From a virus, in the IMG/VR virus record IMGVR_UViG_3300028608_000007, positions 32,001 through 96,000 of that record: DNA of 64,000 nt; one strand, written 5' to 3'. Position numbers and translations under genes: made by a program. The notes below the pieces were generated by a model that was not told the origin of the DNA, did no database searches, and worked only from the letters and a program-made list of their open reading frames with translations. Shown here piece by piece: positions 2-36,984 of this stretch (position 1 is the stretch's first letter; every line of letters begins with the position of its first letter).

Positions 2-292
2 TACATCACCCCTGAGGGTGAGTTTGCAGTGCTGGAGTTCGATCACAAAGACCATGAGTTCTTCTTGCGCATGGATTCGTTACATGACTACCGTAACTGG
101 TGTCAGGTTGAGCGATTCCGCGTAGAAGGCAATCTGTTCTGCGGCGCGTGTCCTTACAAAGGAAACTGTCTGTCGGAACACTTACGCGATGTGAAGTCCT
201 TGGACAACTCCTGTAACGGGTTCCGAGGACTCTTAGACAGGTGGGCTGAACATGCAAGTACAACACCGACAGCGCCTGGAGATCACCCTTGA
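2..292 (+). CDS. Radical SAM/SPASM-like protein, C-terminal fragment (gene starts before window)
   Basis: Frame open from nt 2 (YITPEGEFAVLEFD...); Cys cluster CGACPYKGNC...SCNG typical of SPASM/Twitch auxiliary Fe-S domains. Confidence 0.7.
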   Translation, partial: YITPEGEFAVLEFDHKDHEFFLRMDSLHDYRNWCQVERFRVEGNLFCGACPYKGNCLSEHLRDVKSLDNSCNGFRGLLDRWAEHASTTPTAPGDHP

Positions 293-1268
293 CATCTTTC
301 GAGGGTGTGGTCACTCCTGTGCAGGCTGCATGATTGACAAACAACTAGGGGGTGAGGTTTCAGACATCCCTGAGTTGCTGCTGTTGATCCAAGAGATGGA
401 AGCTGTGGGTTACGTACCCTTTGACTTAGGTGTCGGACCTACAGACTACATGACCTCGAACAACGTACAAGACGTGATGGGCAACGAGACCTTCCAAGAG
501 ATGGCTCAGTTGTTCCATCAGGTGACCTTCAACGCTGCGTTCTTGGAAAAGGATCTGGACAAGTACTCCGAGATGTGCCAAGACATTGATCTGGCGTGTC
601 CCGGTAAGCCTATCCGGTTCCTCATTCCAGCAGCCCCCACCTTCTTCAAGAACGACAAGTTTGGCAACATGATTGAAGCCAAGCTTAATCACTGTAAAGA
701 AGCTTTCCAGTCAGCCTTCTTGAATGAGGCAGGCTTTGTCGTAACGTGTAACCATGAGACGATGGATGAGAACTTCGACCAGTTGATTCGACGCGGGATG
801 GATGTTGAATTCCCAGTGGACAAAGACGACATCCTCAACATTCCGTATGGTCGCTCCAAGAACCTGGACCTAATGGTGTCTCAACGGGTCTTACGTGTCT
901 CCCACGCCATCAGTGAGTTCTATGCAGGGCTTTCTGGTGAGGACGAGCGTCGTCGTAACCCTGATTTGCACTACGACACAGGGACGATGGTTAACTTGTT
1001 GTACACAGGTGGGAAGCTGTATTGGGTTCCCTTCCTTAAAGACGACTGTCCGTTCATTCACGACGAGTTTGTGATCCCAAGGCCCTGGACTATGTCTAAC
1101 CTCTTGCGCGTGCGTAACGAGGCTATGGAGCGTTCTGTAGAGTACCTCAAAGATACCAAGTGTCTTGAGTGTGTACACTTCGCTAGCTGCATGGAGAAGG
1201 GCATCAGCACCATCATGCAGAAGCTGTCGATTCGTGATTGCTTGGTGGGCTTAGATCATGTTTCCTGA
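252..1268 (+). CDS. Radical SAM-like protein with C-terminal Cys cluster
   Basis: N-terminal CxxxCxxC (CGHSCAGC); C-terminal CLECVHFASC; overlaps neighbours. Confidence 0.75.
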   Translation: MQVQHRQRLEITLDIFRGCGHSCAGCMIDKQLGGEVSDIPELLLLIQEMEAVGYVPFDLGVGPTDYMTSNNVQDVMGNETFQEMAQLFHQVTFNAAFLEKDLDKYSEMCQDIDLACPGKPIRFLIPAAPTFFKNDKFGNMIEAKLNHCKEAFQSAFLNEAGFVVTCNHETMDENFDQLIRRGMDVEFPVDKDDILNIPYGRSKNLDLMVSQRVLRVSHAISEFYAGLSGEDERRRNPDLHYDTGTMVNLLYTGGKLYWVPFLKDDCPFIHDEFVIPRPWTMSNLLRVRNEAMERSVEYLKDTKCLECVHFASCMEKGISTIMQKLSIRDCLVGLDHVS

Positions 1269-2295
1269 GCTGATCGGCATGTCCTTAAACCTGAACCTTG
1301 AGATCCTCACCGGGTGTGGGTTCAGTTGTCCTGGCTGTACTGTGGAGAAGAACTTTGCACCGTTCGAGTTACCAGCCGCCGATACACAAGCGCTCGAAGC
1401 TTTCGTACTCGACCTCCGGGCGCAACAGTGGAGGCTCCTCGAGTTCAAAGTCGGGCCCACTGATATTTGTAGTTCTGATAACGGCTTTGCTGCTCTGGGT
1501 CACCCATTAGTCAAAACCTTGGCTCAACATTACAAAGCGTTGAACATCAACCTTGCGATGTTGAGTACTCGAGGCTTTGAAGAGTTAGCGCCGTTGCTCG
1601 ATGCGTTGATGCCCGGTAAGAAGCTCTCTGTGACGGTTCCAATGACGTTGAAGAACATTGGTAACCCAAAGTACCGGGCTGTGTTGAAAGAGCATGTAAC
1701 GTACTTTAAGAGCCTTCTGAAAGAGGTGGACTTTAACCGGGTGTACGCAGGGTTCAACGTGGTCGAGGAAAACCTCACCCACTTGGATCTTGAACACTAC
1801 GAGTTAGCCCACACACTGGACCTAGGTAACGTAGGGATCGTGGTGGAGTTCCCGTTTGCTCACTCACGCCAAGGGTTCAACAACCTCTTGAACGTCGAGA
1901 AGTTCAAACGTGATCTGGCGGTGTACTCTGAGTTCGCTAAAGCGCGAGTCAACACTCAGATGTTCCGTCCTTTGCAACCTGCGATCTTGGAAGGTTTTGA
2001 ATTCACGTACCGAGGCGGTAGTTTGTACACCACTCCGGTACTGATCGAAAACTTCCCAATCTTCCATCCTGACTTTGAGTTACCCAGACCATGGACCTCC
2101 GAGTCTGTATTAGCTTACAAACAGGAGAGATACTACGATAACCTGATCGAGTATGCCGAGCACCCCGAGTGTGGGAATTGCTGTTTCCTCGATCATTGTG
2201 CACGCGGTGACGTCCATCGCATCATGAAACTGATTGGGAAAGACACATGTCTGACAAACACCCGCAATCGGAGCGACCTGTTAATCCCGGAGTAG
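1258..2295 (+). CDS. Radical SAM-like protein with C-terminal Cys cluster (paralog of previous)
   Basis: CGFSCPGC triad; C-terminal CGNCCFLDHC; shares GPTD, F.IPRPWT/F.LPRPWT and LY.GG.LY blocks with 252..1268. Confidence 0.75.
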   Translation: MFPELIGMSLNLNLEILTGCGFSCPGCTVEKNFAPFELPAADTQALEAFVLDLRAQQWRLLEFKVGPTDICSSDNGFAALGHPLVKTLAQHYKALNINLAMLSTRGFEELAPLLDALMPGKKLSVTVPMTLKNIGNPKYRAVLKEHVTYFKSLLKEVDFNRVYAGFNVVEENLTHLDLEHYELAHTLDLGNVGIVVEFPFAHSRQGFNNLLNVEKFKRDLAVYSEFAKARVNTQMFRPLQPAILEGFEFTYRGGSLYTTPVLIENFPIFHPDFELPRPWTSESVLAYKQERYYDNLIEYAEHPECGNCCFLDHCARGDVHRIMKLIGKDTCLTNTRNRSDLLIPE

Positions 2296-2741
2296 AGGGT
2301 AACTTCCCCATCATCTTGGACTATATCAGGTTCCCAGAAAACCTTCCTGACCTAGCTCTCTGTCAAACCAACAAAGAGTTTATCACGGACCCTGAGATCA
2401 ACGACTACGTCACCACCCATCTCTTGTCTCAAGTGCGCGAGAGGGTAAAGGTGGACGAAGGTTACGAGCTACATGCTTGCGCCAATCACGTTCATATCGG
2501 CGACCAAGGGATCAACATCCACGATCATCAACCTCACGCTCTGACGTCTGTCCTCTTCTTGACGCAGTCTGATGGCATGCTGGTCTTGCATGAAGATCCC
2601 GTCACTCCTGGTCAAGCTATCAAGCCTAAACCGGGACGCTTTGTAATCATGAAGGGAACCACGCTCCATCAAGTATTCCCTTCTCCCATGCCTGAACTTC
2701 GAATTACTTTGGTGTCCAACTATGAATGTCGCCGTCCATAA
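2247..2741 (+). CDS. Putative 2OG-Fe(II) oxygenase (cupin/DSBH)
   Basis: IHDHQPHALTSVLFL ... PGRFVIMKGTTLHQV ... RITLVSN: HxH, distal His and terminal Arg pattern. Confidence 0.65.
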   Translation: MSDKHPQSERPVNPGVEGNFPIILDYIRFPENLPDLALCQTNKEFITDPEINDYVTTHLLSQVRERVKVDEGYELHACANHVHIGDQGINIHDHQPHALTSVLFLTQSDGMLVLHEDPVTPGQAIKPKPGRFVIMKGTTLHQVFPSPMPELRITLVSNYECRRP

Positions 2742-3159
2742 GCAGTATCAAGAGTTGTACGCCTCGGTTGTCCAAGAACACTCTGACGACTTCTCGAAGA
2801 TGTTGTTTGTTGAAGACGGAGAGTTGGTGGAGAACGCCAAGCAGTACTTCCTCAAGGCTGAGTTCCCGTTGATCTATCCAGCCAAGTCGATGGCAGTAGC
2901 AGTGATCTACGCTCTGTTGCTGGAAGAGACCTACGCGATCAATCCGTTTGATTCGTTGAAGGACCCTGACTTGTTCTTAGGACAAGACCCCTACTTCGAA
3001 CCGTATGACAAACATCCGAATGAGTACGACCAGTTGCTCGAGTGGGTACTCAGCCATGACAACTGGAAGGAGCTAGGTTGGGCTCCGAAGACCTGTGAGT
3101 ACTTCCGTTTGGAGTGCACCGCAGAAGGCATTCAAGAAGTGATGGAGAACCTCGGATGA
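2722..3159 (+). CDS. Hypothetical protein within rSAM/oxygenase cluster
   Basis: 145-aa ORF translationally coupled on both sides (ATGA overlap at 3156-3159). Confidence 0.7.
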   Translation: MNVAVHKQYQELYASVVQEHSDDFSKMLFVEDGELVENAKQYFLKAEFPLIYPAKSMAVAVIYALLLEETYAINPFDSLKDPDLFLGQDPYFEPYDKHPNEYDQLLEWVLSHDNWKELGWAPKTCEYFRLECTAEGIQEVMENLG

Positions 3160-3716
3160 ACATTATCCAACCTTGGCAGACCCCGCTTGGTCATTCGAAC
3201 TTTGCTCAGTGTTTGGACCTCACCGCACTCAAAGATGAGATCGGTGCGCTGGCACTGATGTCAGACCAAGAAGACGGTGGACAGCGTTACGTCAATGACT
3301 ACTCGACGTTCCCCAACATCGTTCACTTGATCCGTGACATCATCGACCATGAGGTCAAAGAGTACGTCCAGAAAATGTGGGACTACAACCTCGGTGACTT
3401 CCGTCGGGAAACCAACGCCAAGTGGATTCCACCGGGTGAGGGTCTGTACCCGCACTACCACCCTGGTTCACAGATGTCGGCGATCTTCTACCCGGAAGAC
3501 TCTCCATCAGGGTTGGCGATGTTTGATCCACGAGGTAATGCGTGTCGTGGTTATCCCAAACCGATCCGCAATCGCTTCATGGCTCCGCACCTGATCTCTC
3601 CTGCGGCGGGTGATCTGTGGATCTTCCCTTCCTTCGTACAACACAGCGTCTCCTACGTGAAAGAGGACACGCGGCTTTCTATGTTGTGTGAATACTACTT
3701 CTCTGACGAGCGCTAA
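3156..3716 (+). CDS. Putative 2OG-Fe(II) oxygenase (TIGR02466/PF13759-like)
   Basis: HYHPGSQMSAIFYP ... FDPRG ... GDLWIFPSFVQHSV ... RLS; start moved to ATG 3156 overlapping upstream stop. Confidence 0.8.
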   Translation: MNIIQPWQTPLGHSNFAQCLDLTALKDEIGALALMSDQEDGGQRYVNDYSTFPNIVHLIRDIIDHEVKEYVQKMWDYNLGDFRRETNAKWIPPGEGLYPHYHPGSQMSAIFYPEDSPSGLAMFDPRGNACRGYPKPIRNRFMAPHLISPAAGDLWIFPSFVQHSVSYVKEDTRLSMLCEYYFSDER

Positions 3717-3718
3717 CC

Positions 3719-4273
3719 ATGGAACTGATTCAACCCTGGAACACGTCTATCTTCAAAGGTAACGTGTCCCACATGTGCAACGTGGAAGACATCGCTAACG
3801 AGATCCTGACTCTCCACAGTCTGTCTCCACAAGAGTCCACCACCCCTCACAAAGTCACTCCCGAAGAGTTCCCAGCTCTGTGCGACTTCCGCGATCGCGT
3901 CGTGACCAATCTGGTTAAGGAGTTTGCATGGCAGACCATGCACTTCGACTTGACCGAGTTCACTGTCGATACGTTCGGTAAGTGGTTTGCTAAAGGTTCT
4001 GACCTGGCCCCACACGTTCACGGTAGCACTGGTTTCACCACCATCTTCTACCCGGACGATTACGAATCGGGGATGATGATCTTCGACCCTCGTGGGAATG
4101 CTTCGCGTGGCTATCCTCGCAAGATTCGCGACGAACACTTCGCTCCGTACACCGTGTACCCGAAGAAGGGTGACCTGTACATCCTGCCTTCGTTCCTGCA
4201 ACACTACGTGCCGACCGTGAAAGACGATCTGCGCCTGTCGCTGATCAACGACTACATGTTCAAGTCGATCTAG
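3719..4273 (+). CDS. Putative 2OG-Fe(II) oxygenase (tandem paralog)
   Basis: HVHGSTGFTTIFYP ... FDPRGNASRGYP ... GDLYILPSFLQHYV ... RLS. Confidence 0.8.
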   Translation: MELIQPWNTSIFKGNVSHMCNVEDIANEILTLHSLSPQESTTPHKVTPEEFPALCDFRDRVVTNLVKEFAWQTMHFDLTEFTVDTFGKWFAKGSDLAPHVHGSTGFTTIFYPDDYESGMMIFDPRGNASRGYPRKIRDEHFAPYTVYPKKGDLYILPSFLQHYVPTVKDDLRLSLINDYMFKSI

Positions 4274-4276
4274 CTA

Positions 4277-4303
4277 GAGGGCCCTCCGGGGCCCTTTATG
4301 CCG
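4277..4303 (+). terminator. Hairpin terminator + TTTATGCCG tail
   Basis: agggccc-tccg-gggccct followed by tttatgccg. Confidence 0.75.
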
Positions 4304-4310
4304 TCAATCT

Positions 4311-23343: not shown

Positions 23344-25527
23344 TTACGGTTGCTCTTGAGTGGCAACAACGATTTTGTTGGTGAGAACTTTGTCCAACCC
23401 CTTCACTTTGATCACTGCCATGGCTGGCAGGTGGTTGATGTGGAGGTTACGCGGTTGCACCATGGCTTCTGGGTAGGTGCCGCCGTCACGCTGAACCATC
23501 ATGCTGGAAGCCAGCTCAGGAATCCACGCGTGCACACCGAAGGTGAGCGGGTCGATGCCTTCGGATTGACCCATGCGGGTCAGACCGATGATGATGGTGT
23601 CCTTCATACGGAAGTCGAAGGAGGACTCGATTTGGTACTCTGGGAACGCGATACCGAAGGTGCGGCTGTCGCCGACAACCATCAGGTGACGTTGCAGAAC
23701 CACGTCGGTACCGATCAGCAGCTTCGGCTGTTGCGAGCCAGTTACGGCAGCGTTCAGCGCAGGCTGGTAGCCGGTGTCGCGGTACATGCGGTAGGACACG
23801 TCACGAATGGCGTTAACCAGGATGGCGTTGATGTCCTGGGCACGGTCCATGTCACGGATGGAGTTGATCTCTTGCTCCAGATCGATTTCCTTCTCTTCGA
23901 AGAAAGGTTTGATCAGGAAGCGACCAACACCTTCCACTTCAGGGATGGTGTCCTGGCGTTTCACGGCCTTGGCGTACGACTTCAGGGTTTCTGCGTAGTT
24001 CAACAGGCGGGTAACCGCGTTGTTGGTGTTACGCACGCGCACGGCGTTGATCAGCATTTCCAGGTCGCGAGCGTCGCGGTTCGAACCGGCCGGGGAAGGC
24101 GCGGAGATCGGAGCACCCAGCGGGATGTGGAAACGGAAGGTGCGATCGTTGGTATCCAGCAGCAGACCACGAGTACGACGGTTGCTGTTGGTACGAGCGG
24201 CCTTCAGATCGTAAGCAACGACCTTGGCGTCTTTCAGGGACAGCACGATTGGAGCACCAGCGCCGGAGACCAGGCTGATTTCTTTGCCGTCAGCATCGAT
24301 GATGCTGTCAACGGTTACAGGCGAGCTGTAAACGCGACCGTTGCCGAGCTGGGTGTCGAAGTCGCCGTTCAGGTTCACAGCCAGGCGTACGGTGACGTTG
24401 GCAGTGGTGATGGCGGCCAGCAGGGTCGGAGCAACACCAGCGGTGGTGAGAGTGTCTTTGTCCAGGACCAGGTCAGCGGTCTTGAAGTTCAGGTTCATCT
24501 CACGGTTGGCGCCTTCAACCGACTTCACGAAGTGGCTGCGGGCCAGACGGCTGGTCACGTACTTCACAGCTTCGCCGTCGGCGAGCTGGATGTAGATGTT
24601 TTCCAGACCGATCGAGTTGTCGATCGCGTCGGTGTGGTCGATGATGCCAGCGCCGATCAGACCTGGGTGCTGCGACAGGCCCAGCAGGTTCAGCTCGACG
24701 TTGATGGCCAGAGGCGCGGTCGGTACGTCGATGTTCGAGATGCGGCGAACGGTCGGAGCGACCAGTGCGGCGTCGATGAACTTGTCAGCGTTGCCGCCGT
24801 TGGCGAGAACGACTGGGATCAGGCTGGTGGATTCGTCGGCCAGGATTTTGTGGTCCATGGCAGCTTCGACCAGGTTCTTACGGTTCCAGTCAGTCACCTT
24901 ACCGGTGTTGCTGTGCTGGATGGCGTTGTGAACCAGGGTACGGCGAACGGTGATGTCCAGGCCACCTTGCTCCGGCGGTACGACAGTAGTCGGGTACCAC
25001 ATTTCGGAGAAGCTGTCTTGAACAGCCGCTTTCACGTTGAAGACGATGGAGTAAGGCAGGAACTTGGCCAGCTCACGTTCGTCGAACGATTCCAGGGAAG
25101 GAGTGTCACGGGTGTCAACGACACCAGCAGCACCGCTCGAACCGATGTCAACAACGTTGTCACCGGAAGCCTGGGAACGCATGGCGACTTCGGCGTATTC
25201 GGCCGGGTTACCAGCAGCCATTGCGGCGATCGCACCGGCTTGCAGTTGGGTGTCGGTCAGGTCTTCTTCGCCGTCGTCTTCGCCTTCACCGTCTTCCAGG
25301 GAAGGGCGCAGGGCTGCGAAAGCGTCTTTGATCTCACGACCGATGTCCTTGGCGCGGCGGTCCAGTTCAGCGAACTGGCCTTCGTCCAGGGACTCCATGG
25401 AGATCAGTTGACCGGTGATGTCCTTGGAAGCAATGTCCGTGCCTTGGGTAGCGATGGTCTGACGCAGGGCAGACAGGACGTTGTTCAGAGGCGAACCAGC
25501 AGAGCCTTTGAATTTCAGAAATGACAT
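23344..25527 (-). CDS. Major capsid protein (phiKZ gp120-like)
   Basis: 727 aa; extreme high-expression codon bias; propeptide with ISMES/PSLED/PSLES protease sites; YSIVFNVKAAVQD.F.E.WYPT and QPRNLHINHLP blocks. Confidence 0.9.
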   Translation of the reverse strand: MSFLKFKGSAGSPLNNVLSALRQTIATQGTDIASKDITGQLISMESLDEGQFAELDRRAKDIGREIKDAFAALRPSLEDGEGEDDGEEDLTDTQLQAGAIAAMAAGNPAEYAEVAMRSQASGDNVVDIGSSGAAGVVDTRDTPSLESFDERELAKFLPYSIVFNVKAAVQDSFSEMWYPTTVVPPEQGGLDITVRRTLVHNAIQHSNTGKVTDWNRKNLVEAAMDHKILADESTSLIPVVLANGGNADKFIDAALVAPTVRRISNIDVPTAPLAINVELNLLGLSQHPGLIGAGIIDHTDAIDNSIGLENIYIQLADGEAVKYVTSRLARSHFVKSVEGANREMNLNFKTADLVLDKDTLTTAGVAPTLLAAITTANVTVRLAVNLNGDFDTQLGNGRVYSSPVTVDSIIDADGKEISLVSGAGAPIVLSLKDAKVVAYDLKAARTNSNRRTRGLLLDTNDRTFRFHIPLGAPISAPSPAGSNRDARDLEMLINAVRVRNTNNAVTRLLNYAETLKSYAKAVKRQDTIPEVEGVGRFLIKPFFEEKEIDLEQEINSIRDMDRAQDINAILVNAIRDVSYRMYRDTGYQPALNAAVTGSQQPKLLIGTDVVLQRHLMVVGDSRTFGIAFPEYQIESSFDFRMKDTIIIGLTRMGQSEGIDPLTFGVHAWIPELASSMMVQRDGGTYPEAMVQPRNLHINHLPAMAVIKVKGLDKVLTNKIVVATQEQP

Positions 25528-25696
25528 ATCGATGTGTCCTTTTTACTTTCACGAAAGTACAAGTGGGGTGGAATCGGCACGCTGCCTTACCAGTTGCGAC
25601 TAAACAACGGTATCGGTTATAGCTGCTATATAATTAAACATTTACAGCAAACCGAGTTGCAGAGTCATTGAAACATAAAATACGTATTTACGTACT

Positions 25697-26239
25697 TCAA
25701 GGTTTACCGAGAGAATTTAAGTACTCCCGGAAGAAGTCGGAACGGGCGACGTTAGCCAACCCAGTAGCGATAACCCAACGGGTCATCAGCTCGTCCAAGA
25801 AGGTCTCTCCGTTGACATAGGGAGATTCGCCCATCTGTCCTAAGATAGGTGTAACAATTAACGTATCAGATTCGACTGACTTAACGGTGAGTGTGTACTC
25901 ATCGTTGGTTGTATCGTCACGACCCAGCCAGGCTTCATCAGCATTGTAGCCTTGAGCAGCCTTGGCGCGCATGTAGTCAACGATCTGACTGATCTTGCGA
26001 TACCTATCTTCTGAACCCTTCGGAGGGTCACACAGAAGTAAGGTGCAGGTCGACGGGAAGGTCTCTGCAAAGGCACGAGTGAACAGTGCTTCACGCTTCT
26101 CGTTGAGCAGGACATATTTGGCTACATCCTCAGGGGATAGTATAGCCTGCAACTGGTGGAAGTCGTTGACCGTTGCCAGATCGACTTTAGCGTATTCCAG
26201 GGCTTTCATAAGCCACAGGGGTACCAAGACTACTCTCAT
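25697..26239 (-). CDS. Conserved virion protein upstream of MCP (phiKZ gp119-like)
   Basis: Synteny between DnaB and MCP; 180 aa. Confidence 0.6.
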   Translation of the reverse strand: MRVVLVPLWLMKALEYAKVDLATVNDFHQLQAILSPEDVAKYVLLNEKREALFTRAFAETFPSTCTLLLCDPPKGSEDRYRKISQIVDYMRAKAAQGYNADEAWLGRDDTTNDEYTLTVKSVESDTLIVTPILGQMGESPYVNGETFLDELMTRWVIATGLANVARSDFFREYLNSLGKP

Positions 26240-26269
26240 TTATACAGACTCCGCGTTAGGAAAACCGTG

Positions 26270-27820
26270 ATGGATGAAAAACTGCTATTGATACAGGTGA
26301 TCACTCTCCTGTATCGAGAAAGCCAACTGGAGACTCGGAACTCAAACTCGAGCGAGTTGGCTGCCTCTGTTGTGGCCACTGTCCGTATCCCAGAAACGGC
26401 AATGGAGGCCGACCGCGGACGTGAATCGCTCAAGGCTCTGAGAAACACCGCATTGGCGATGATCTCTAATCCTCCGAGCCAGGATTATGACAGGACTATC
26501 CTGCTTCAAAAGATACGTGTAAACGTTGGGGACGAGGACGAGCTGTATCAAGCGTTCGAAGCTGCAACTCACCCCATCGAAAACGAAATCTGGTTGAAGA
26601 AGGCGATCCTCGAGTATCGTGCTGAACTGAACGCGTACATGAACCGCGCACAGATCACCGAGATCTTGAAGCAAGCGTATTCAGCGTCCACCTTTAATCC
26701 CCACAGTGTTGACTGGAAGAATTTCGTCCACGACATTATGGGTAACCTTGAACCGCTGGCTCAAATGCAGACAGTGGAACAGAACCCTGCGATTGTAGGC
26801 TCTGTAGACCTCGATGACGACGAAGCTGTGATGGCCCTGATGAACCAGGCGCAGGAAGAGCTTTCGACCAATGGCGTGCTTCGTACGGGCTGGCAGGGCG
26901 TTAACCGGATGTGTGGTGACCAGGACGGCTTCCGTCGTGGTGAGTTCATCCTGCTGGGTGCGCTGCAACACAACTTTAAAACTGGTTTTACGCTGAACCT
27001 GTTTAAACAGTTCGGCTTGTACAACCGACCGTACATGCGTGACCCGTCGAAGAAACCACTGCTCCTGCACATTTCCGCAGAGAACAACCTCATCGACAAC
27101 GTCATGCAACTCTACGTCTCTATTAAGGAGAACGAAACAGGCGAAGCAGTGTCGATCCGTGGCGTGGATCAGAAAGAGGCTGCTGCGTACGTTAAGAGCC
27201 GCATGATGGGTAACGGCTACCACATCCGCATGTTGCGAGTGGACCCGTCTCTATTCAGCTACCGCGACCTGTTCGACTTGATCACCAAGTACGAGTCGGA
27301 AGGTTTCGAAGTTCACTGCTGTGTGTTCGACTACCTGAACATGATCTCGAAGAAGGGCTGCCAACAAGGTCCTCACGGCTTCGAGACACGCGACCTCGTA
27401 CGTCGTGTGCGTAACTTCACTGCACCCCGTGGCATTACCTTCATTACTCCCCATCAGCTCTCTACGCAAGCCAAAGAGCTGGTACGGCAACAGATCGAGA
27501 ACTTCGTTCAAGAGATTGCCAACAAAGGCTACTACGACTCCTGCCGAACGGTCGACCAAGAGGTTGACATGGAGATCACGATTCACATCGAGAAATTCAA
27601 CGGCGAGAGCTACCTCACTATCCAACGCGGTAAACACCGTAAGGTTACGATCACCCCTGAGAAAGATCTGTACTGCGTTCTGAAGTTCGAGAAGATTGGT
27701 AACATCCCTGACGACTACGGTAAAGCAGACCGCACCCTTAAGAAAGTGGGCGGGCGACCAGAGTCGGATGGTGGCAACGCAAACGTCTGGTGGGATTCGC
27801 ACGAGAAGATGGCTGCATAG
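26270..27820 (+). CDS. dnaB: DnaB-like replicative helicase (phiKZ gp118-like)
   Basis: LRTGWQGVN...GF.RGEF, Walker A variant GALQHNFKTG, Walker B VFDYL, TPHQLS, LTIQRGKHR; start MDEKLL at 26270. Confidence 0.9.
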   Translation: MDEKLLLIQVITLLYRESQLETRNSNSSELAASVVATVRIPETAMEADRGRESLKALRNTALAMISNPPSQDYDRTILLQKIRVNVGDEDELYQAFEAATHPIENEIWLKKAILEYRAELNAYMNRAQITEILKQAYSASTFNPHSVDWKNFVHDIMGNLEPLAQMQTVEQNPAIVGSVDLDDDEAVMALMNQAQEELSTNGVLRTGWQGVNRMCGDQDGFRRGEFILLGALQHNFKTGFTLNLFKQFGLYNRPYMRDPSKKPLLLHISAENNLIDNVMQLYVSIKENETGEAVSIRGVDQKEAAAYVKSRMMGNGYHIRMLRVDPSLFSYRDLFDLITKYESEGFEVHCCVFDYLNMISKKGCQQGPHGFETRDLVRRVRNFTAPRGITFITPHQLSTQAKELVRQQIENFVQEIANKGYYDSCRTVDQEVDMEITIHIEKFNGESYLTIQRGKHRKVTITPEKDLYCVLKFEKIGNIPDDYGKADRTLKKVGGRPESDGGNANVWWDSHEKMAA

Positions 27821-27859
27821 GCCAAAACAAGCAAAAAAAAAAGAGTCTAACGCGGACTC

Positions 27860-27903
27860 AGAGTGAGAGAGCCGAAGCTCTCTCACTCACCCTTATTATG
27901 CCC
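27860..27903. terminator. Terminator between convergent genes
   Basis: gagtgagagagc-cgaa-gctctctcactc then ccttattatgcccc. Confidence 0.85.
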
Positions 27904-28237
27904 CTTCTTTTCCGAGCTGCATGTGCAACGCGAAGTAGGCTTGGCGCACAGCGTCTTCAAACGTGTGAGACCAGACCGTTACTTCTTCGCCGTCTTCTTC
28001 TACCGGAAGGCAGGTGATCTGAACGATGCGATCAACTTCCAACATGGCGTGAACCACGTCGTCGGACAACCCAGCAACCGTTTGCAGATGCTCAACGGCA
28101 TCTTCAATGGTGGACTTGGGATTGTCACGGTGTTCATTGATCAGGATGGTCACAGAGCCCGAGGTGAGATCCTGGATGTCAGCCAGCATCAATTCCAGAG
28201 TCAGTTCGGCTTCTTCTGGTGCACTGTTATCCATCAT
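27896..28237 (-). CDS. Hypothetical protein (acidic)
   Basis: Coupled operon, ATGA overlap. Confidence 0.65.
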   Translation of the reverse strand: MMDNSAPEEAELTLELMLADIQDLTSGSVTILINEHRDNPKSTIEDAVEHLQTVAGLSDDVVHAMLEVDRIVQITCLPVEEDGEEVTVWSHTFEDAVRQAYFALHMQLGKEGA

Positions 28238-28608
28238 TCTTCGGCACTCGCTTGACGGACTACGGTGGGACGCATGAAGATGTCCTCGAGGTAGTCATTG
28301 GTTTCTTGCATTTCTTTCAGCGTGGCCGAACGAGTGAGGTACTCGAGTACCCGGAAGGTGACCTGGAAAGTTTCACCGTCTTCTTCACCACGAACGTGAT
28401 AGCCCATGTGACGAAGCTTCTTGATCATGCCAGCAATGCTGACGTCCTTGATACGGTCGGTTTTGGTAACCCCTTCCCGCAGTTCGCTACGAGTGAACTC
28501 GATGGTGATGTCGCTGGTGACGCCCAGCTTGATCAGGAGTTCGAAGCGATCGCAGATCAGGGAGTTGATGTGGTCGGCCAGGTCTTTGGTTTTAACAGCT
28601 ACGGACAT
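28234..28608 (-). CDS. Hypothetical protein
   Basis: GGAAAG SD; phage codon bias. Confidence 0.65.
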   Translation of the reverse strand: MSVAVKTKDLADHINSLICDRFELLIKLGVTSDITIEFTRSELREGVTKTDRIKDVSIAGMIKKLRHMGYHVRGEEDGETFQVTFRVLEYLTRSATLKEMQETNDYLEDIFMRPTVVRQASAEE

Positions 28609-28629
28609 TACTTACTTTCCTTCTGAGGA

Positions 28630-28926
28630 TTATTTCTTAGGTTCTAGGACAACGATCTCGGTGCCCCGTTTTATTTTCAGGGCGTAGTTCCCTGGGATGA
28701 AACACAATGCTTCACTACTGGACGTAGCTTTAGCCCGGCGAGGAACACCGGTTTGTTCTGATAGGACTTCGATCACAGTAGTGACCGTACGCATCATTGC
28801 ACCTTGCGGTAACAACATGTAGTACGTTTCTTGGATCGTGCCGTATCGCGCGTGGTTAGAGCAAGAAGCTCTAACCCATTCGTTACGAGGAAAACTTCCG
28901 TTATCCTCCTTACCTGCCTCGTTCAC
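28630..28926 (-). CDS. Hypothetical protein
   Basis: Overlaps upstream stop. Confidence 0.55.
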   Translation of the reverse strand: MNEAGKEDNGSFPRNEWVRASCSNHARYGTIQETYYMLLPQGAMMRTVTTVIEVLSEQTGVPRRAKATSSSEALCFIPGNYALKIKRGTEIVVLEPKK

Positions 28927-29201
28927 TCGCCACGGCCTGGGTAGTGGGCAACCAGTTCGTACAGCTCAACTGGTTTCTCGTCGATTGCCAGTTCAGTTGG
29001 AATCACCGGAACGACCTTGACGTTGGGAACGTAGGTCATGCTGGTCATCACCGAACGGCTGTGATCGTAGGTGTCTACTGGACCGGTAATGGTATCGCGG
29101 ACCAGAGCCCCGTAGCCGACAGCCATTGCTTCGGTTTTGGATTTGGCCGTTTGGTCAATTACTACCCAGCCTTTCTTAACTTCGTTATTTACTTGAGACA
29201 T
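28923..29201 (-). CDS. Hypothetical early protein
   Basis: GGAGGT SD; first gene after early promoter at 29.27 kb. Confidence 0.7.
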   Translation of the reverse strand: MSQVNNEVKKGWVVIDQTAKSKTEAMAVGYGALVRDTITGPVDTYDHSRSVMTSMTYVPNVKVVPVIPTELAIDEKPVELYELVAHYPGRGE

Positions 29202-29260
29202 CGTTTACCTCCTAAGGTACTTAAGTTGTTGTAAACAGGTTTAGATTAGTCTAATCTGTT

Positions 29261-29295
29261 CACCTAGGTAATATACACTTGAGATTTGTTTCAAT
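29261..29295 (-). promoter_or_regulatory. Early promoter
   Basis: Minus strand ATTGAAA-N13-TATATTACCTAGGTG; contains the exact phiKZ early core TATATTAC. Confidence 0.8.
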
Positions 29296-29490
29296 CGGTA
29301 TCTTTCTACTTTTCCCCTGTATGTCCCGAGTTTTGTAATTTCGTACATACCACACCTAAGTTAATGAGAGCGATATGATATCGCCTCACGGGGAATTAAT
29401 AACAACACGCAACTAGGATAACGTACCAATGGAAGCGCTAATACGCGATTACCAAGGAGCACGTCACCGGGGAGCTACAGGGTGGCGTAA

Positions 29491-29865
29491 ATGGGCAATC
29501 GCATCGGTACAGTAAACGTAACACCCGCTACACCCGAAACACCAATCACTGCTGTAAAACCCCAAACGGGATGGCTAACTGAAAGTCTGGCTCTGGCGGT
29601 TGCAAGCTCTAACCTGCTTCGACACCCCCTGTGCTACGCGGATTTGAAACACCGCAGTTGTGAAACCAGCCAAACAGAACATGGTCGCTTTGTAGAGACG
29701 CCCCTGAGGCTCCACGAAGGAATGCTTCTGTCTATCTTGTCGGGTCCGCATCATCCGTTGCTAAGGCAAGCTTATGCAAATACCCGTAATTATGTGAGAG
29801 AGTTCCTCGAACTTTCACAACCGGTGTTCCCGTGGCCAATGGGCATAAAAGCCCAAATGCTCTAG
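29491..29865 (+). CDS. Uncertain ORF (124 aa); region may instead be non-coding
   Basis: Open frame, but atypical codon usage and stop lies inside the terminator stem. Confidence 0.3.
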   Translation: MGNRIGTVNVTPATPETPITAVKPQTGWLTESLALAVASSNLLRHPLCYADLKHRSCETSQTEHGRFVETPLRLHEGMLLSILSGPHHPLLRQAYANTRNYVREFLELSQPVFPWPMGIKAQML

Positions 29866-29912
29866 CATCCTTCTTCGGAGGGATGCTAGAGCAGTCACGG
29901 TTCTTTATGCCG
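29857..29912. terminator. Long bidirectional hairpin terminator + TTTATGCCG
   Basis: tgctctagcatcc-ttcttcggag-ggatgctagagca; gggcataaaa on the left, tttatgccg on the right. Confidence 0.85.
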
Positions 29913-30330
29913 TCAGCTTCTTTTTAGGGATGCCAGCGTGTGGGAACAGTCGCAGGGTAGTTGCGTACCCATAGGTGTTCCCACTATAACCGTGGGTCTT
30001 TGGTAGATGCACTTCGAACACTGTAACACCGCACTCCTTGAACTTACGCTCCAGATAGGAGCCCAAGGAGACGATGAGGTCAATCTCTTTGTGTTCTGCG
30101 GCCGAGTGTAGGTTGCCGTTCACCTCCATTTGAAAATATTGCTTCCTGGTTGCAAAACCATCGGCCTTCTTGTTGTAAGAAAAGAACCCTACAGCGTCCA
30201 TCCCCTGATGATTAGGGGCCTCTGCTAACAAGATGATCTTGGTGTTGTCGGTTAAAGCTAGGCCATCTCTACGCTCCACCGCTGCTTCAATGGTTGCCAT
30301 CTCGCGTACTCCATATCCCATTGATGACAA
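29905..30330 (-). CDS. Hypothetical protein
   Basis: 141-aa ORF ending at terminator; start uncertain (30330 or 30300). Confidence 0.5.
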   Translation of the reverse strand: MSSMGYGVREMATIEAAVERRDGLALTDNTKIILLAEAPNHQGMDAVGFFSYNKKADGFATRKQYFQMEVNGNLHSAAEHKEIDLIVSLGSYLERKFKECGVTVFEVHLPKTHGYSGNTYGYATTLRLFPHAGIPKKKLTA

Positions 30331-30421
30331 GAGAAACTCGGGGAGTTTTTCTATTGTGTTAAGTGTTGGCAGTTACACCTCGGTTTTGTAATAGGGTGCT
30401 TCCTGCTCACACAATAGGGGT

Positions 30422-30916
30422 TTATGCCATCATTTGACTTTGAGCCCACAACGACTCTTGTTCACGTTTGGCAGGATCGTTAGATGGTTCAGTCACATTG
30501 AAGGTGATCTGATACAGCTTAACCGCGTTGTAGATAGTCGCAGCGGTGACTTCTGGGACTTCGAGTACCTTCATAGCCTCGAGCAATACCAGATCCGCCT
30601 GCGGCCTTGTAATGCGTTTAGGAACGCCGTCGACAGTGACCGACAGATACTCACAGAGAATGTCGTGAACTACCGCAGCCTGACCGTAAGCTCCCCATGG
30701 TGGAATGATCGACCAGAACGCCCGTGGTACCGAGGCACCGTCAGTCAGATAGCCCGCAGGAACATCGACCCACTGATTGCTACCCTTAGCCCCAAGGTAA
30801 TAGCGAAACCCCTTCATAACGCGCCAGTAGTCCTTACCGAGGCGTTTACTGGCTTCATGGTCGTAAGTAACCATCAGCTCAGCATCGAACTTTGTAAACC
30901 CTAGCAGTTGTGTCAT
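30422..30916 (-). CDS. DUF1353 family protein
   Basis: VPAGYLTDGASVPRAFWSIIPPWGAYGQAAVVHDILC signature. Confidence 0.85.
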   Translation of the reverse strand: MTQLLGFTKFDAELMVTYDHEASKRLGKDYWRVMKGFRYYLGAKGSNQWVDVPAGYLTDGASVPRAFWSIIPPWGAYGQAAVVHDILCEYLSVTVDGVPKRITRPQADLVLLEAMKVLEVPEVTAATIYNAVKLYQITFNVTEPSNDPAKREQESLWAQSQMMA

Positions 30917-31055
30917 GTTAGCCCCATGCTTTATATAGCTCGTAGAGACTCCAGGTCACCACGAACGTGATAAACAAACTATGTCCCCAATAGAAGCTCA
31001 AGTCCCTTTTAGTCATTGGAACTTACCTCAATAATTACAGACATAAGAATGGGGC

Positions 31056-31087
31056 AAAAAAAAAAAGAGGGGCCGAAGCCCCCCTCT
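31056..31087 (-). terminator. Intrinsic terminator
   Basis: agaggggc-cgaa-gcccccctct with poly-A on + (U-tract on -). Confidence 0.8.
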
Positions 31088-31088
31088 G

Positions 31089-31478
31089 TCAATGTACCGT
31101 AGTCGGCGCGTAGAACACACGTTCACCTTGGCGGTATTCCTGCAAGTGCAGGCGTTTCCACGGGATCACGTTTCCAGCTTCCATTTGCTCGAGCAACTCA
31201 GGGTTGGTGTTATGCAGCGAGATCGGATTGCCGTAAGGCTTGAGTGCCTCAACCAGCGCAGGGTCCGTCATTACTTCCAACGACACCTTGCGACGGTTCT
31301 TGACCTCACGGGAGGTCGTGATGCGATCGATGAGTCCGAGCTGTTGAAATTTGATGTTGAAATACACGTATCCACCGGACGCTTTCTTCACCGCCACATA
31401 CGGCAGGTTAGGATCGAACATTCCAGTTTCAATACCCACGGGAACTGCCACTTCACGGCGCAGACTAAGCAGGCTCAT
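31089..31478 (-). CDS. Hypothetical protein
   Basis: Coupled to DHFR. Confidence 0.6.
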   Translation of the reverse strand: MSLLSLRREVAVPVGIETGMFDPNLPYVAVKKASGGYVYFNIKFQQLGLIDRITTSREVKNRRKVSLEVMTDPALVEALKPYGNPISLHNTNPELLEQMEAGNVIPWKRLHLQEYRQGERVFYAPTTVH

Positions 31479-32058
31479 CTTTGATCACCTTTCGTTCCAA
31501 TACGTTAATGTCGAATTTAACATCCTGGGTGTGGAATGTGATATCCCACTCCAGGGGATTCCATTCGGGAAAATACGTATCGCACTGGTAAGTACCGTGG
31601 ACAGTGGTCAAGCACATCTCCTCGACCAAATCCTTTTCCAGTACCTCAGCGTAAAGCTGTGCCCCTCCAATTACCACGGGGTTGCCTAAATCAACCCCAA
31701 GTGCGCGACTCCAATTTTCCCTTACGGCATCGCAAAGCTGGAACGCATGTTCCAGATCACGAGCCACATACAGCCCGAAGCGCAGGTAGTCTCTGACGTA
31801 GTCTTTCCCCGACAATACGATCAGAGCCCGGCCTGGTAGCAACGGTTGTTTCTCACTGCCCCACGATTCATCTGCGGGGAGCTTCTTACGCGCGATCAGG
31901 GAGTCGACGGTCTTACTCCCAGCGATCACGATTTTCCCGTAGGTGTAGTTGTAGAAGTTTCTCAAGTCTTCTGGACATTCCCACGGGAGATTATTGTTGA
32001 GTCCGATGCCCCGTTCAGCATCCATCGCCGCAATCAGATTCACTTTCCGCTTGTGCAT
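31465..32058 (-). CDS. folA: Dihydrofolate reductase
   Basis: LIAAMD..RGIG.NN.LPW..PED, LLPGR..IVLS, VIGGAQLY, DTYFPEW. Confidence 0.9.
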   Translation of the reverse strand: MHKRKVNLIAAMDAERGIGLNNNLPWECPEDLRNFYNYTYGKIVIAGSKTVDSLIARKKLPADESWGSEKQPLLPGRALIVLSGKDYVRDYLRFGLYVARDLEHAFQLCDAVRENWSRALGVDLGNPVVIGGAQLYAEVLEKDLVEEMCLTTVHGTYQCDTYFPEWNPLEWDITFHTQDVKFDINVLERKVIKDEPA

Positions 32059-32716
32059 TCTTTAAAGCCTCGACCTGACGCTCAGGCGCGTAGTAAAAGG
32101 TAGGCGTCTCCCGGTCTTCAGAGACCAGCTCAGTCAGGAACAGTGGTTCGTTCTTCTTGAGTTCTAGACCCCAGTGTTTAGGGGAACCGCTGTAGCCGTA
32201 CTTGCTGAACATCAGAATGTCAGCAGTCAGCACAACAGGTTCATGCGGCACTTGGACGTAGTGTTTGGTAGGATCTTCTTTGCAGATCTCTATTTCATAT
32301 GGCACACGAATTTCTTTATACGCATCCCACAGTAGGTCTTTGCAGATAGCAGTCCACAGTTCCGCTTCGTTGTCACGAGCCCAGTGGAAATCTTCCACCG
32401 ATTCGTAACGTACGCAAACAGGAATGGCTTCTTCTTCACGGAGGATAGCCATCCCGCAGTACGCATCGATCTTACCGATCTCAGCAGCAGGCAGTGCGTA
32501 GTACAGGTATTCGTCAATGAACAGCATCAATTCTTTCAAGGAGTCGGAATGAGTCTTCCGGTCCATGATGGGTTTGAGGATTGCTCGAGCAACGATGCCC
32601 TCAGTTTGTTTCTTTTTAGCCATTTTCAAGGCTTTCTTCTGAACTTCCTTGAAACCATGATTCTTGTGAGTCAGGGCCAGAATCAACAGAGTATCCAGAT
32701 CGCCGAACTTTTCCAC
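32015..32716 (-). CDS. Hypothetical protein
   Basis: 233-aa ORF in minus-strand operon. Confidence 0.6.
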   Translation of the reverse strand: MEKFGDLDTLLILALTHKNHGFKEVQKKALKMAKKKQTEGIVARAILKPIMDRKTHSDSLKELMLFIDEYLYYALPAAEIGKIDAYCGMAILREEEAIPVCVRYESVEDFHWARDNEAELWTAICKDLLWDAYKEIRVPYEIEICKEDPTKHYVQVPHEPVVLTADILMFSKYGYSGSPKHWGLELKKNEPLFLTELVSEDRETPTFYYAPERQVEALKNAQAESESDCGDGC

Positions 32717-32793
32717 GTTTACTACCTTAATAAGTCTTAGCTCTTCTAAGAGCGGGAGTTAGAGTGGGGCCCCAAAGGACCCCGTGGTATTAC

Positions 32794-33771
32794 CTAGATC
32801 TTTGCCAGCCAGTGATCACGAGGAACACGGACCGACGCCGAGTTGGTGTGGCCACCACCGCCCAGTGCTGTTGCGATTGCTTCGCAGTCGGCAGCATTAG
32901 GGTTGTCGCGGCTCGAGTTAAAACGGAACACACGTGCGTCTGCCGTATCGAAGTAACTCATCACCAAGGAGTGTTCCGTGGTGTAACGATCGTTCAGCGC
33001 ACTGTACAGCGGTTTCGGTGCATTGAACATCGGTACATCGATCAGGACGATAGGTTCAGAACCATCGACCGTTTCAATAGTACCTGTGAAGTTACGACGA
33101 GTTTCACGAGCGTACCAATCCAGCAGGTTGTTGTCGCTACGTTCCAGCACTTCCCCTGCATCAATCAGGTTCTGCGCAGGCAACAGCGACAGGGCTTCCC
33201 ACTGGAGCAGATCCGCTTCGGTATTGCTGGTCAGGAATGCAGCACAAGCACGGCTGTACCTGCGACTACCCGGAACCTTGAAACGGAACAGGTCGGCATC
33301 ACCCGACATGGTTACGATGGTTGGTTCTGGAGCAGACGCGCCGTTGAAGAACTTCCACGCCAGTTGAGCACCGGATTCGTAGATGTCTACGTACAGCTTG
33401 AGGTTTGGTGGATTCACCTCGTAAGGCATTGCGCCTTCGTAAGGTTTACCCATGTCCTCGGCGATGTTGAACGCCTGCTGAGCAGCGCTGGTTTCGCTGT
33501 TCAACGCGGTGTACATCTTTTCAGTGGTCTTGTGGTGGTCAATGACGATCACCAGTTCAGCCACTTTACACAGTTCCCGCAACACCGAGATCGGGTAGGA
33601 GAAGTCCAGGATGTAAAGGATCTCGCCCCGCTCAATCTTCGGTGGAGCTTCGCCATATTCGGCGGACACGAAAGTTGCATGGGGGAGCCGTTGATGAGCA
33701 ACCCAAGCGGCTGTGATCCCATCAACGCAGTTCCGGTGGTAGACCACCGTTGTTTTTGCTGGTTCAGTCAT
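32794..33771 (-). CDS. DHH/DHHA1 family phosphoesterase (NrnB-like)
   Basis: YHRNCVDG, YILDFS, IDHHKT, GGGGH motifs; GGAGGG SD before ATG 33771. Confidence 0.85.
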   Translation of the reverse strand: MTEPAKTTVVYHRNCVDGITAAWVAHQRLPHATFVSAEYGEAPPKIERGEILYILDFSYPISVLRELCKVAELVIVIDHHKTTEKMYTALNSETSAAQQAFNIAEDMGKPYEGAMPYEVNPPNLKLYVDIYESGAQLAWKFFNGASAPEPTIVTMSGDADLFRFKVPGSRRYSRACAAFLTSNTEADLLQWEALSLLPAQNLIDAGEVLERSDNNLLDWYARETRRNFTGTIETVDGSEPIVLIDVPMFNAPKPLYSALNDRYTTEHSLVMSYFDTADARVFRFNSSRDNPNAADCEAIATALGGGGHTNSASVRVPRDHWLAKI

Positions 33772-33787
33772 ATCCCCTCCTAGGGAT

Positions 33788-34195
33788 TCAAAGATCGACG
33801 TCCTTCCACTCACGAGTAATTCCCCCGATTTCATGATCTGAAATGACGTACATCACTGAGATATCCGCCTTTGTTGGATGGTGGAAGCCAAACAAGAAGT
33901 ACGGACTTTCACTCATATACACCAGAGTATCCCCATACTGCGGGGTCCTCCGGGCAACCTCAACGCCAATAATGCGTTCAGGCCACTGTTGGTGATGAAA
34001 CTGACCTACTGTGCAATCCACGGCGTGTTGGCCCAACTCTGGTAACGGCGCTTGGTCACCGCAGTCAGCAAAGAACACAGGACGGTTGTCAGGAGTTACA
34101 TAGCCAAACTCAATGTTGGGAATGGACAACGCTCCCGCCAAAGTGTCTTGGGCTTCCTGAAAACTATCGTGAACGTCACCTGGTTGACGGATCAA
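33788..34195 (-). CDS. Hypothetical protein
   Basis: Probable TTG start overlapping upstream TGA (TTGA); ORF track start 34279 is an extension. Confidence 0.5.
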   Translation of the reverse strand: MIRQPGDVHDSFQEAQDTLAGALSIPNIEFGYVTPDNRPVFFADCGDQAPLPELGQHAVDCTVGQFHHQQWPERIIGVEVARRTPQYGDTLVYMSESPYFLFGFHHPTKADISVMYVISDHEIGGITREWKDVDL

Positions 34196-34611: not shown

Positions 34612-34899
34612 TCTTCGGTTCCCCTTGCATGGCGGAGCGATCAAAGAAATCGCCCCCAATGAATGGTACTACCGCTCCAGACAGCACGCCGTCCAGCAAG
34701 TTCTTGTATGCTGGCAGACGCTCCTTGAAGGTTCGAACTCGGGTAGCGCCACCACTTCTTCCGATGTGGTAATCCGAAATCACTACCGTACCTGCCGGAT
34801 CAAAGAAGTCAGCTTCGACATCAATGACCCGACTTTCCCTTGCAAACGGCATGGGTTGTTTATTACGACCTCCCATGTAAACCTTTTTCTTCTTCATCA

Positions 34900-34900
<1 letters not shown>
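34568..34900 (-). CDS. Short protein with N-terminal metallophosphoesterase-like motifs (possibly truncated)
   Basis: VISDYHIG and GGDFFD motifs but no GNH(D/E) or later His motifs. Confidence 0.45.

Positions 34901-36984
<2,084 letters not shown>

Follow-up and report, generated by a model that had tools for sequence, protein, structure and literature searches.

Radical S-adenosylmethionine (SAM) maturation is well known in bacteria for peptides and for a few proteins. Among the systems described, the HXS antiphage system (Li et al., Nat Commun 2026, PMC13128918), which combines the effector HxsA with the radical SAM enzymes HxsB and HxsC and with HxsD as a small partner, is the nearest in logic to the phage gene cassette that is the subject of this analysis. 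The cassette was found on a 180,543-bp IMG/VR record (IMGVR_UViG_3300028608_000007, judged 65% complete), of which bases 32001-96000 constitute the analysed stretch of 64,000 nucleotides, referred to as the window. It specifies radical SAM enzymes, cupin/oxygenase-type proteins and a small protein with a C-terminal tail of Cys-His units, the tailed protein. As in HXS, two or more radical SAM enzymes would mature a whole protein and not a short peptide. The HXS modification lies in a His-x-Ser motif (PMC13128918), of which each Cys-His-x-Ser unit of the tail contains one, and a radical SAM enzyme is combined with a small partner, namely HxsC with HxsD there and rSAM-D with u145 in the cassette. 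The differences are nevertheless considerable. In comparisons with the HXS models (TIGR03976-03979), the cassette scored 26 bits for HxsB (cut-off 370) and 18 bits for HxsC (cut-off 268), none of the proteins u145, u156, u247 and u351 matched HxsD, and the tailed protein did not match HxsA. Moreover, the tail has an invariant Cys in each unit and a C-terminal RGRR, the cassette has four to six radical SAM enzymes plus oxygenases, and its owner is a phage whose product goes to the virions, whereas the HXS product goes to the periplasm.

By fold and profile the nearest enzymes are anSME, which was considered along with other minimal radical SAM/SPASM maturases (SuiB, CteB, ChlB and PapB), and YydG/EpeE, but the scores come close to none of the family cut-offs. 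The enzyme anSMEcpe (PDB 4K36-4K39) is the best structural neighbour of rSAM-E, and anSME is the best NCBIfam match of rSAM-A; like anSME, the cassette enzymes comprise around 320-360 amino acids without a leader-binding domain and would act on a folded protein. However, the best cassette score for anSME (TIGR03942), 47 bits, stays far under the cut-off of 349, the tail contains no C/S-x-P/A-x-R, which is the motif that anSME targets, and rSAM-D, rSAM-E and rSAM-F possess four auxiliary Cys and not seven or eight. The epimerase YydG/EpeE (PDB 8AI1-8AI6) is of similar size, has a single auxiliary cluster, and is both the closest solved relative of rSAM-D in a family profile search (E 2e-9) and one of the top Foldseek matches for rSAM-E, but the match with rSAM-D is confined to the N-terminal 130 residues and the NCBIfam score was 24 bits against a cut-off of 300. 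Compared with the pathways for peptides that are made on ribosomes and modified after translation (RiPPs), the candidate substrate is a protein of 180-300 amino acids that is found in virions, and within the cassette neither a RiPP recognition element (RRE) nor a protease family was detected. For PqqE with PqqD, as for other radical SAM maturases, the small substrate-binding partner is separate in some genomes and fused in others, and rSAM-D and u145 are likewise separate or fused. In contrast to PqqD, u145 is all-helical (best Z 3.7 in structure comparison) and not recognizable as a PqqD-like winged-helix RRE, nor does its fold clearly match any other RRE. The best-supported reading is that the cassette serves the radical SAM maturation of a protein. 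More specifically, we predict with a probability of around 0.6 that it performs a multi-step post-translational modification of the tail of a small virion protein. Gene content, synteny, invariance of the tail, folds, gene fusions and the presence of a homologue in virions are observations, whereas the role of the tail as substrate, the type of chemistry and all the catalytic activities are inferred.

The tailed protein and its companion genes

An earlier note, made from the window sequence alone, described a cluster of seven genes at the start of the window. All seven open reading frames (ORFs) were found where it had placed them (positions 2-4273, plus strand) and they are tightly coupled, with successive junctions of -41, -11, -49, -20, -4 and +2 nt (overlaps or a gap of at most 2 nt). 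They do not form a self-contained unit: the window edge cuts through a cassette of 16 genes (genome positions 24885-36273), six of them of the radical SAM type and four of the cupin/oxygenase type, of which the seven constitute the 3' half. In order, the cassette begins with a cupin/JmjC-like protein (169 amino acids), rSAM-A (344), the tailed protein (184), u247, u351, rSAM-B (337), a hairpin, rSAM-C (363), u156 and rSAM-D, which starts 667 nt upstream of the window and continues into it. It is preceded, within the same plus-strand run, by three tail-fibre/virion-structural genes (phrog_2163, phrog_13857 and phrog_11065), and a location directly behind tail-fibre genes was observed in both phage lineages. 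The first 8 kb had no megablast match in the phage collection.

The earlier note had advised annotating the upstream region for a Cys-rich fibre or a short precursor and had named a tail-fibre gene upstream of the window as an example of a candidate substrate. What was found there, 5 kb upstream of the window (genome positions 26430-26984), is the gene of the small tailed protein, a constant companion of the enzymes, and this separate protein, with its near-invariant tail and its homologue in virions, is the likely substrate, not the large fibre. The protein ends in CHTSCHDNCHCARGRR, with the tail reading CHTS-CHDN-CHCA-RGRR. The last 16 residues hardly vary across an alignment of 24 homologues with identities of 33-90%. 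On a larger scale, among 95 tailed proteins from 94 loci, all but those of L013 and L075 followed the tail pattern C-H-x-S, C-H-x-[S/N], C-H-x-[S/A/N], R-[G/S/A/T]-R-R. While the identity of the protein body drops to 24-33%, the tail retains its three Cys-His pairs, R-x-R-R and the first Ser. The body, 180-300 amino acids long, has invariant residues of its own. In the sub-clade that contains the phage studied here, unit 2 reads CHDN and unit 3 reads CHCA; a connection between the CHCA variant, with its extra Cys, and rSAM-E/F was ruled out, as Pseudomonas phage pPa_SNUABM_DT01 (DT01) and others carry rSAM-E, rSAM-F and cupB along with canonical tails. Like C-termini were found in the cultured phages DT01 (gp065), Ralstonia phage RSL2 (ORF068) and Agrobacterium phage Atu_ph07 (gp170), and a comparison of the tailed protein with the ESM Atlas gave chance-level matches only. 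The closest relative (P0001, 90% identity) comes from an assembly labelled Streptomyces sp. CHB9.2; the contig that encodes it, of 241,743 bp, is probably a jumbo-phage genome within that assembly.

The presence in virions has been established for the homologue of Atu_ph07. Its gp170 was detected in purified virions as a 31.89-kDa protein with 8 unique peptides and 35% coverage (PMC6102473, Supplementary Table S5); the mass that we computed from the locus (L085:4983-5873) is also 31.89 kDa, and therefore the gp170 numbering agrees. The protein was spread over gel slices 1-9, with its greatest abundance in the top slice (slice 1), where the other proteins are of 87-139 kDa (PMC6102473), which is no more than a hint of an SDS-resistant or covalently linked assembly. 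The same virion table lacks the homologues of the radical SAM enzymes (gp165, gp168 and gp171), the cupin (gp172) and u247 (gp169) (PMC6102473).

To specify which genes belong together, loci were fetched via the tailed protein (80 from IMG/VR and 10 from bacterial genome assemblies) and all their ORFs were typed with hidden Markov models (HMMs) of the cassette families; the census comprises 94 loci, many of them cut by contig ends. The tailed protein was present in all 94, followed by u247 (91), rSAM-A (90), rSAM-B (84), rSAM-C (81), the cupin (78), u351 (74), rSAM-D (73), u145 (66), ox1-type and ox2-type oxygenases (47 each), rSAM-E and rSAM-F (28 each), cupB (17) and u156 (2). The order cupin, rSAM-A, tailed protein, u247, u351, rSAM-B, rSAM-C, rSAM-D, u145 and oxygenase is near-constant, and it is held in jumbo phages, in contigs of marine T4-like phages and in metagenome-assembled genomes (MAGs) of Bdellovibrionota. 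Among the window genes, rSAM-D and u145 are the universal core and ox1 and ox2 are near-core in phages, whereas rSAM-E, rSAM-F and cupB are add-ons found mainly in a clade of jumbo phages; relatives of the rSAM-E/F pair do occur in some marine-phage and Bdellovibrionota loci, and an F-like gene is found in RSL2. The block of DT01 corresponds gene for gene, RSL2 and its relatives contain a variant, and Atu_ph07 has a reduced form. The five Bdellovibrionota MAG loci possess rSAM-A, the tailed protein and u247, most of them also rSAM-B, rSAM-C, rSAM-D and u145, and E-like or F-like enzymes are present as well, but a cupin and convincing oxygenase matches were not found in these five. In one of them (L093) the flanks are ordinary bacterial genes encoding FabH, an AMP-binding enzyme and a B12-radical SAM protein.

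Some neighbouring genes were observed besides. The Peptidase_S74 domain is an intramolecular chaperone of fibres and tailspikes, and a protein with this domain is encoded around 3 kb upstream of a bacterial cassette copy on a Bdellovibrio MAG contig (L092:4427-5548). On a marine phage contig a gene of the tryptophan-halogenase family (L038:4850-6427; phrog_2928, E 1.7e-144) lies around 2 kb upstream of the cassette. In the phages RP12 and RP31 a different set of radical SAM genes, specifying a 537-amino-acid radical SAM protein and anSME-like, MoaA-like and MgoB-like proteins, follows the YomR-like gene behind which RSL2 has the cassette (PMC5468394, supplementary tables). This suggests that the site is a hot spot for the exchange of modification cassettes; the difference between the sets also implies that the RP12/RP31 proteome tables cannot serve as evidence on the cassette. 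The literature searched contained no description of this cassette or of its Cys-His tail. The genes are only listed, as 'six radical SAM genes', in the DT01 paper and among accessory proteins in the S13 paper, while the 332-Vera paper calls eight radical SAM genes in the structural cluster 'highly unusual'.

Considering the restricted distribution of rSAM-E, rSAM-F and cupB, one may ask whether these enzymes, and perhaps ox1 and ox2, act on the large tail-fibre proteins, with only rSAM-D and u145 serving the tailed protein. The rSAM-E and rSAM-F genes are distant from the tailed-protein gene and are inserted between rSAM-D and u145, the fibres are rich in repeats like many radical SAM substrates, and in a phmmer census nearly all loci with fibres carrying NNPH..TKAQVGLG repeats just upstream had both rSAM-E and rSAM-F, the exceptions being L006 and L020 (both truncated at a contig end), L075 and RSL2 (F only). 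The association is however confounded by descent within a single jumbo-phage clade, the repeats contain neither Cys nor an invariant odd motif, and E-like or F-like genes occur in marine-phage and Bdellovibrionota loci that lack such fibres (L024, L044, L049, L052, L053, L086, L090-L093 and L095), which makes a fibre substrate unlikely. A fibre domain in common with the marine phages was looked for as well, but the C-terminal domain of phrog_22593, encoded upstream there, is not present in the jumbo-phage fibres.

The conservation of the tail could also be taken to mean that it is a core peptide, which is modified and then cut off to become a cofactor, a metal-binding peptide or a toxin, the body acting as a large leader. 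As in mycofactocin-type precursors, invariance is indeed concentrated in a short segment at the C-terminus, Cys and His bind metals well, the combination of radical SAM enzymes and oxygenases recalls the biosynthesis of pyrroloquinoline quinone, and a protease could be among u247, u351 and u156, which match no assigned function. On the other hand, a body of that length with its own invariant residues, the recovery of the Atu_ph07 homologue as a virion protein at 35% coverage, the location among structural genes and the lack of a detectable protease or exporter family in the cassette all speak against a released peptide, and we consider it quite improbable. A modified tail that stays on the virion protein is the reading that we retain.

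Window genes and their predicted activities

The features of the cassette part that lies within the window are collected in Table 1.

Table 1. Cassette genes and closing hairpin at the start of the window (positions within the window).
Feature	Position	Strand	Description	Remark
rSAM-D	2..292	+	C-terminal 96 codons	complete gene at genome positions 31333-32292, 319 aa
rSAM-E	252..1268	+	atypical radical-SAM-fold protein, 338 aa	paralogue of rSAM-F
rSAM-F	1258..2295	+	atypical radical-SAM-fold paralogue, 345 aa	
cupB	2247..2741	+	short cupin/2-oxoglutarate (2OG)-oxygenase-like protein, 164 aa	add-on gene
u145	2722..3159	+	acidic all-helical core protein, 145 aa	partner domain of rSAM-D (concluded from sequence)
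ox1	3156..3716	+	PF13759/TIGR02466-type Fe(II)/2OG oxygenase, 186 aa	
ox2	3719..4273	+	ox1 paralogue (38% identity), 184 aa	
GC-rich hairpin	4273..4301 (extended), 4278-4295 (core)	+	closes the unit	AGGGCCC-tccg-GGGCCCT

The u145 protein matches phrog_20737 (E 1e-35), has invariant YPAKS and DPYF motifs, and is very acidic (isoelectric point 4.3, net charge -17). Its model (predicted local distance difference test, pLDDT, 90.9) gave no PDB match better than E 1 with Foldseek and no Z above 3.7 in a wide VIA-align comparison; a winged-helix-like identity appeared only in weak, untrustworthy rows of the structure searches and was discarded, and the ESM Atlas contained no usable match. In 44 loci the gene lies directly behind rSAM-D, with a median overlap of 21 nt, whereas in the jumbo-phage clade rSAM-E, rSAM-F and cupB are inserted between the two. 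A profile search for longer relatives recovered proteins of 410-463 amino acids with a Radical_SAM domain, such as P0044, in which residues 3-302 correspond to rSAM-D (45% identity, E 5e-91) and residues 310-449 to u145 (46%, E 5e-40). A search of 1.84 billion representatives identified 292 family members, mostly stand-alone proteins of 135-165 amino acids; the best 150 of these included seven rSAM-D-u145 fusions and one fusion in the reverse order (P0106). Overall, at least 11 protein clusters have u145 joined to the C-terminus of an rSAM-D-type enzyme and one has it at the N-terminus, and the radical SAM part of every fusion types as rSAM-D with the cassette HMMs. Since P0040, P0044 and P0045 have no start Met at the junction, these are not two genes read through, and given the fusion to rSAM-D-type enzymes in both orders we conclude on the basis of sequence that u145 is a partner domain of rSAM-D. 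A scan of viral contigs recovered unfused relatives only. In a single contig another composition was seen: P0041 (291 amino acids) combines the cupB family (residues 8-142) with u145 (residues 142-275), which may be a genuine fusion or the result of a frameshift in a single assembly.

The earlier note had recognized at least three radical SAM/SPASM-like ORFs in the window. A CxxxCxxC motif near the N-terminus is invariant in the families of rSAM-D, rSAM-E and rSAM-F, but the combined label fits only the enzymes encoded upstream. The SPASM domain (TIGR04085) is characterized by two auxiliary 4Fe-4S clusters and seven to eight Cys; rSAM-A, rSAM-B and rSAM-C have seven to eight C-terminal Cys, and the score of rSAM-A (28.7) lies above the TIGR04085 cut-off of 27, whereas rSAM-D, rSAM-E and rSAM-F have four (CxxCx5C..C) and fall outside the definition. 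In rSAM-D the invariant residues include C15, C19 and C22, as well as the Phe before the third Cys and G60-G61-E62, the two motifs expected to contact SAM, and C270, C273, C279 and C294 near the C-terminus. Matches to NCBIfam models were weak, spread over many radical SAM families and far under all cut-offs. The kinship of rSAM-A to rSAM-D lies with maturases of peptides and proteins such as anSME, PapB, the cyclophane formers and YydG.

The assignment of rSAM-E and rSAM-F, the middle two radical SAM ORFs of the earlier note, is less straightforward. The two share 24% identity over their full length (E 3e-28), but neither has a Pfam match at E <= 1 or an NCBIfam match, and the assignment is made because of the Cys motif and the predicted fold. 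Within their family (31 sequences) CxxxCxGC, GPxD and the four C-terminal Cys are invariant, so that the third Cys is preceded by Gly in place of an aromatic residue, and GGE has given way to GPxD. The AlphaFold2 model of rSAM-E (pLDDT 88.9, predicted template modelling score 0.88) displays the partial TIM-barrel fold; its top Foldseek matches were almost all radical SAM enzymes, with EpeE, viperin, SuiB, SkfB and anSME highest, and VIA-align gave Z 14.9 to anSMEcpe (293 of 338 residues) and 13.8 to SuiB, followed by ChlB. A profile of the pair against PDB sequences produced only a weak match to the cluster loop of MiaB (E 0.17). Fused forms of rSAM-E and rSAM-F of at least 640 amino acids were looked for and not found, which is weak evidence. 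On the strength of the model, the two proteins would therefore have the radical SAM fold and the clusters, minus two usual SAM contacts. One could go further and regard them as Fe-S scaffolds or electron-transfer partners of the canonical enzymes that do not cleave SAM, in line with the replacements throughout the family, the failure of any curated model to recognize them, and an hhalign comparison with rSAM-D that aligned the cluster loop alone (12% probability). Yet none of the three cluster Cys and four auxiliary Cys varies, those 293 residues of the predicted fold match anSME and the pair is intact in at least 20 jumbo-phage loci, and we consider this reading improbable too.

The three window ORFs that the earlier note took for cupin oxygenases keep the active-site pattern throughout, and two of them can be assigned by score. 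Both ox1 (40 bits) and ox2 (27.5 bits) exceed the PF13759 cut-off of 27, although they do not reach that of TIGR02466 (27.6 and 13.8 bits against 62.5); cupB remains below the cut-offs (PF13640, 23.5 bits; PF13759, 18.1 bits). In the 33 sequences of the oxygenase family the metal-binding triad, made up of H-x-H and a distal His, does not vary, nor does the R-x-S that follows ten residues later with the 2OG-binding Arg; in ox1 these are H100-x-H102, H163 and R173-x-S. The second metal ligand is His and not Asp or Glu. The pattern of cupB (H92-x-H94, H141 and R152) is likewise invariant. The solved relatives of ox1 and ox2, 3bvc and 2rg4, are uncharacterized proteins from structural genomics. 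The cupin encoded upstream scores above the thresholds of Cupin_2 and JmjC_2 and keeps HxD..H plus a Lys. The JmjC_2 family includes the His/Arg hydroxylases of ribosomal proteins, and by analogy it is a reasonable guess that this cupin hydroxylates a His or Arg of the tail. That the cluster would instead modify DNA bases, or make a small molecule unrelated to protein, was also raised by the earlier note but finds no support and is very unlikely: pathways of nucleobase hypermodification do employ radical SAM enzymes and 2OG oxygenases and a dihydrofolate reductase gene is inserted in the RSL2 cassette, but no nucleotide- or sugar-handling family was detected among the 16 genes, the set always accompanies the tailed protein, bacterial chromosomes included, and the radical SAM kinship is with peptide and protein maturases.

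Hairpins and the lysin gene downstream

As the earlier note had seen, the genes are closed by a terminator-like structure just before the endolysin gene. The strong hairpin directly 3' of the last stop codon has a folding free energy of -21.9 kcal/mol (z -3.4; 1 of 200 shuffles folded equally well). The sequence TATGCCGTC, at 4297-4305, overlaps its 3' end, and behind the hairpin follows TTATGCCGTC; the hairpin was not caught by a simple terminator scan because the T-run is short. A twin hairpin, GC-rich and of 13 bp, is located between rSAM-B and rSAM-C, 2.2 kb upstream of the window (genome positions 29787-29815; L002:13787-13815), with a free energy of -26.5 (z -4.7). Behind the twin comes TTTGTGCCGTC and behind its counterpart at ox2 TTTATGCCGTC. 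The second half of the cassette that is bounded by the two hairpins consists of rSAM-C, u156 and the seven window genes, and given the twin within it the cassette may comprise two transcription or RNA-stability units.

The lysin gene (to 5020) most likely starts at the ATG at 4343, behind a GAGGGG ribosome site, and not at 4298, a position just past the core stem of the hairpin and inside the extended stem. The product has a PG_binding_1 domain and a lytic domain and resembles a gene annotated as transglycosylase in DT01. The next gene encodes an internal head protein of the phiKZ type.

Proposed mechanism and its meaning

A phage-encoded, multi-step modification with a virion-protein substrate encoded upstream had been put forward in the earlier note, and this core of the proposal is sustained by the tailed protein and its virion homologue, whereas the seven genes are not a unit of their own and the small protein is a likelier substrate than the fibre. 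In the scheme that we propose, the cassette is expressed late and its enzymes modify the C-terminal tail of the tailed virion protein. The two-component core enzyme would be formed by rSAM-D, a radical SAM subunit that has a single auxiliary cluster and provides the catalysis, and the strongly acidic u145, a detachable partner domain that probably grips the basic, His/Arg-rich tail. The O2-dependent steps, for instance hydroxylation of tail residues, would fall to ox1, ox2 and cupB, and rSAM-E and rSAM-F may provide a further step or act as Fe-S helpers. The modified protein would subsequently be built into the particle near the fibres, while the enzymes stay in the cell. Concerning the chemistry, cross-links or oxidation at Cys, His and Ser are a guess.

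Several observations weigh against this scheme. Both motifs that are replaced in rSAM-E and rSAM-F normally contact SAM, and therefore these proteins may not cleave it. The Bdellovibrionota copies are without convincing oxygenase matches, so that the oxygenases are not needed for a basic product. Radical SAM enzymes are oxygen-sensitive and the oxygenases need O2, which makes one common pathway awkward. Finally, the Atu_ph07 cassette is reduced, without an oxygenase and with u145 located apart, and the virion evidence thus stems from a distant version.

A more far-reaching possibility, which we put forward tentatively and consider rather less than probable, is that the radical SAM enzymes of these phages and of the predatory Bdellovibrionota place covalent cross-links in the Cys-His tail of a protein of the particle or of the attack apparatus and so fix it in an SDS-resistant fibre or baseplate assembly; the abundance of Atu_ph07 gp170 in slice 1 is a hint in this direction. 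If true, we know of no earlier description of a radical cross-link that enzymes make in a virus particle, rSAM-D with u145 would represent a new type of two-component maturase, and the rSAM-E/F pair a new radical SAM subfamily with altered binding of SAM.

In the literature searched, no virus has been described that devotes four to nine radical SAM enzymes plus oxygenases to a protein of its own particle. The fusions of rSAM-D and u145 indicate a concrete first pair for reconstitution, and modification of the tail, if true, would give enzymologists a compact group of new radical SAM enzymes whose substrate is a defined stretch of 16 residues. It would also link phage particles to the attack machinery of predatory bacteria, and it would join enzymatic post-translational chemistry to the biology of phage tails and fibres, where it could bear on adsorption, host range and particle stability.

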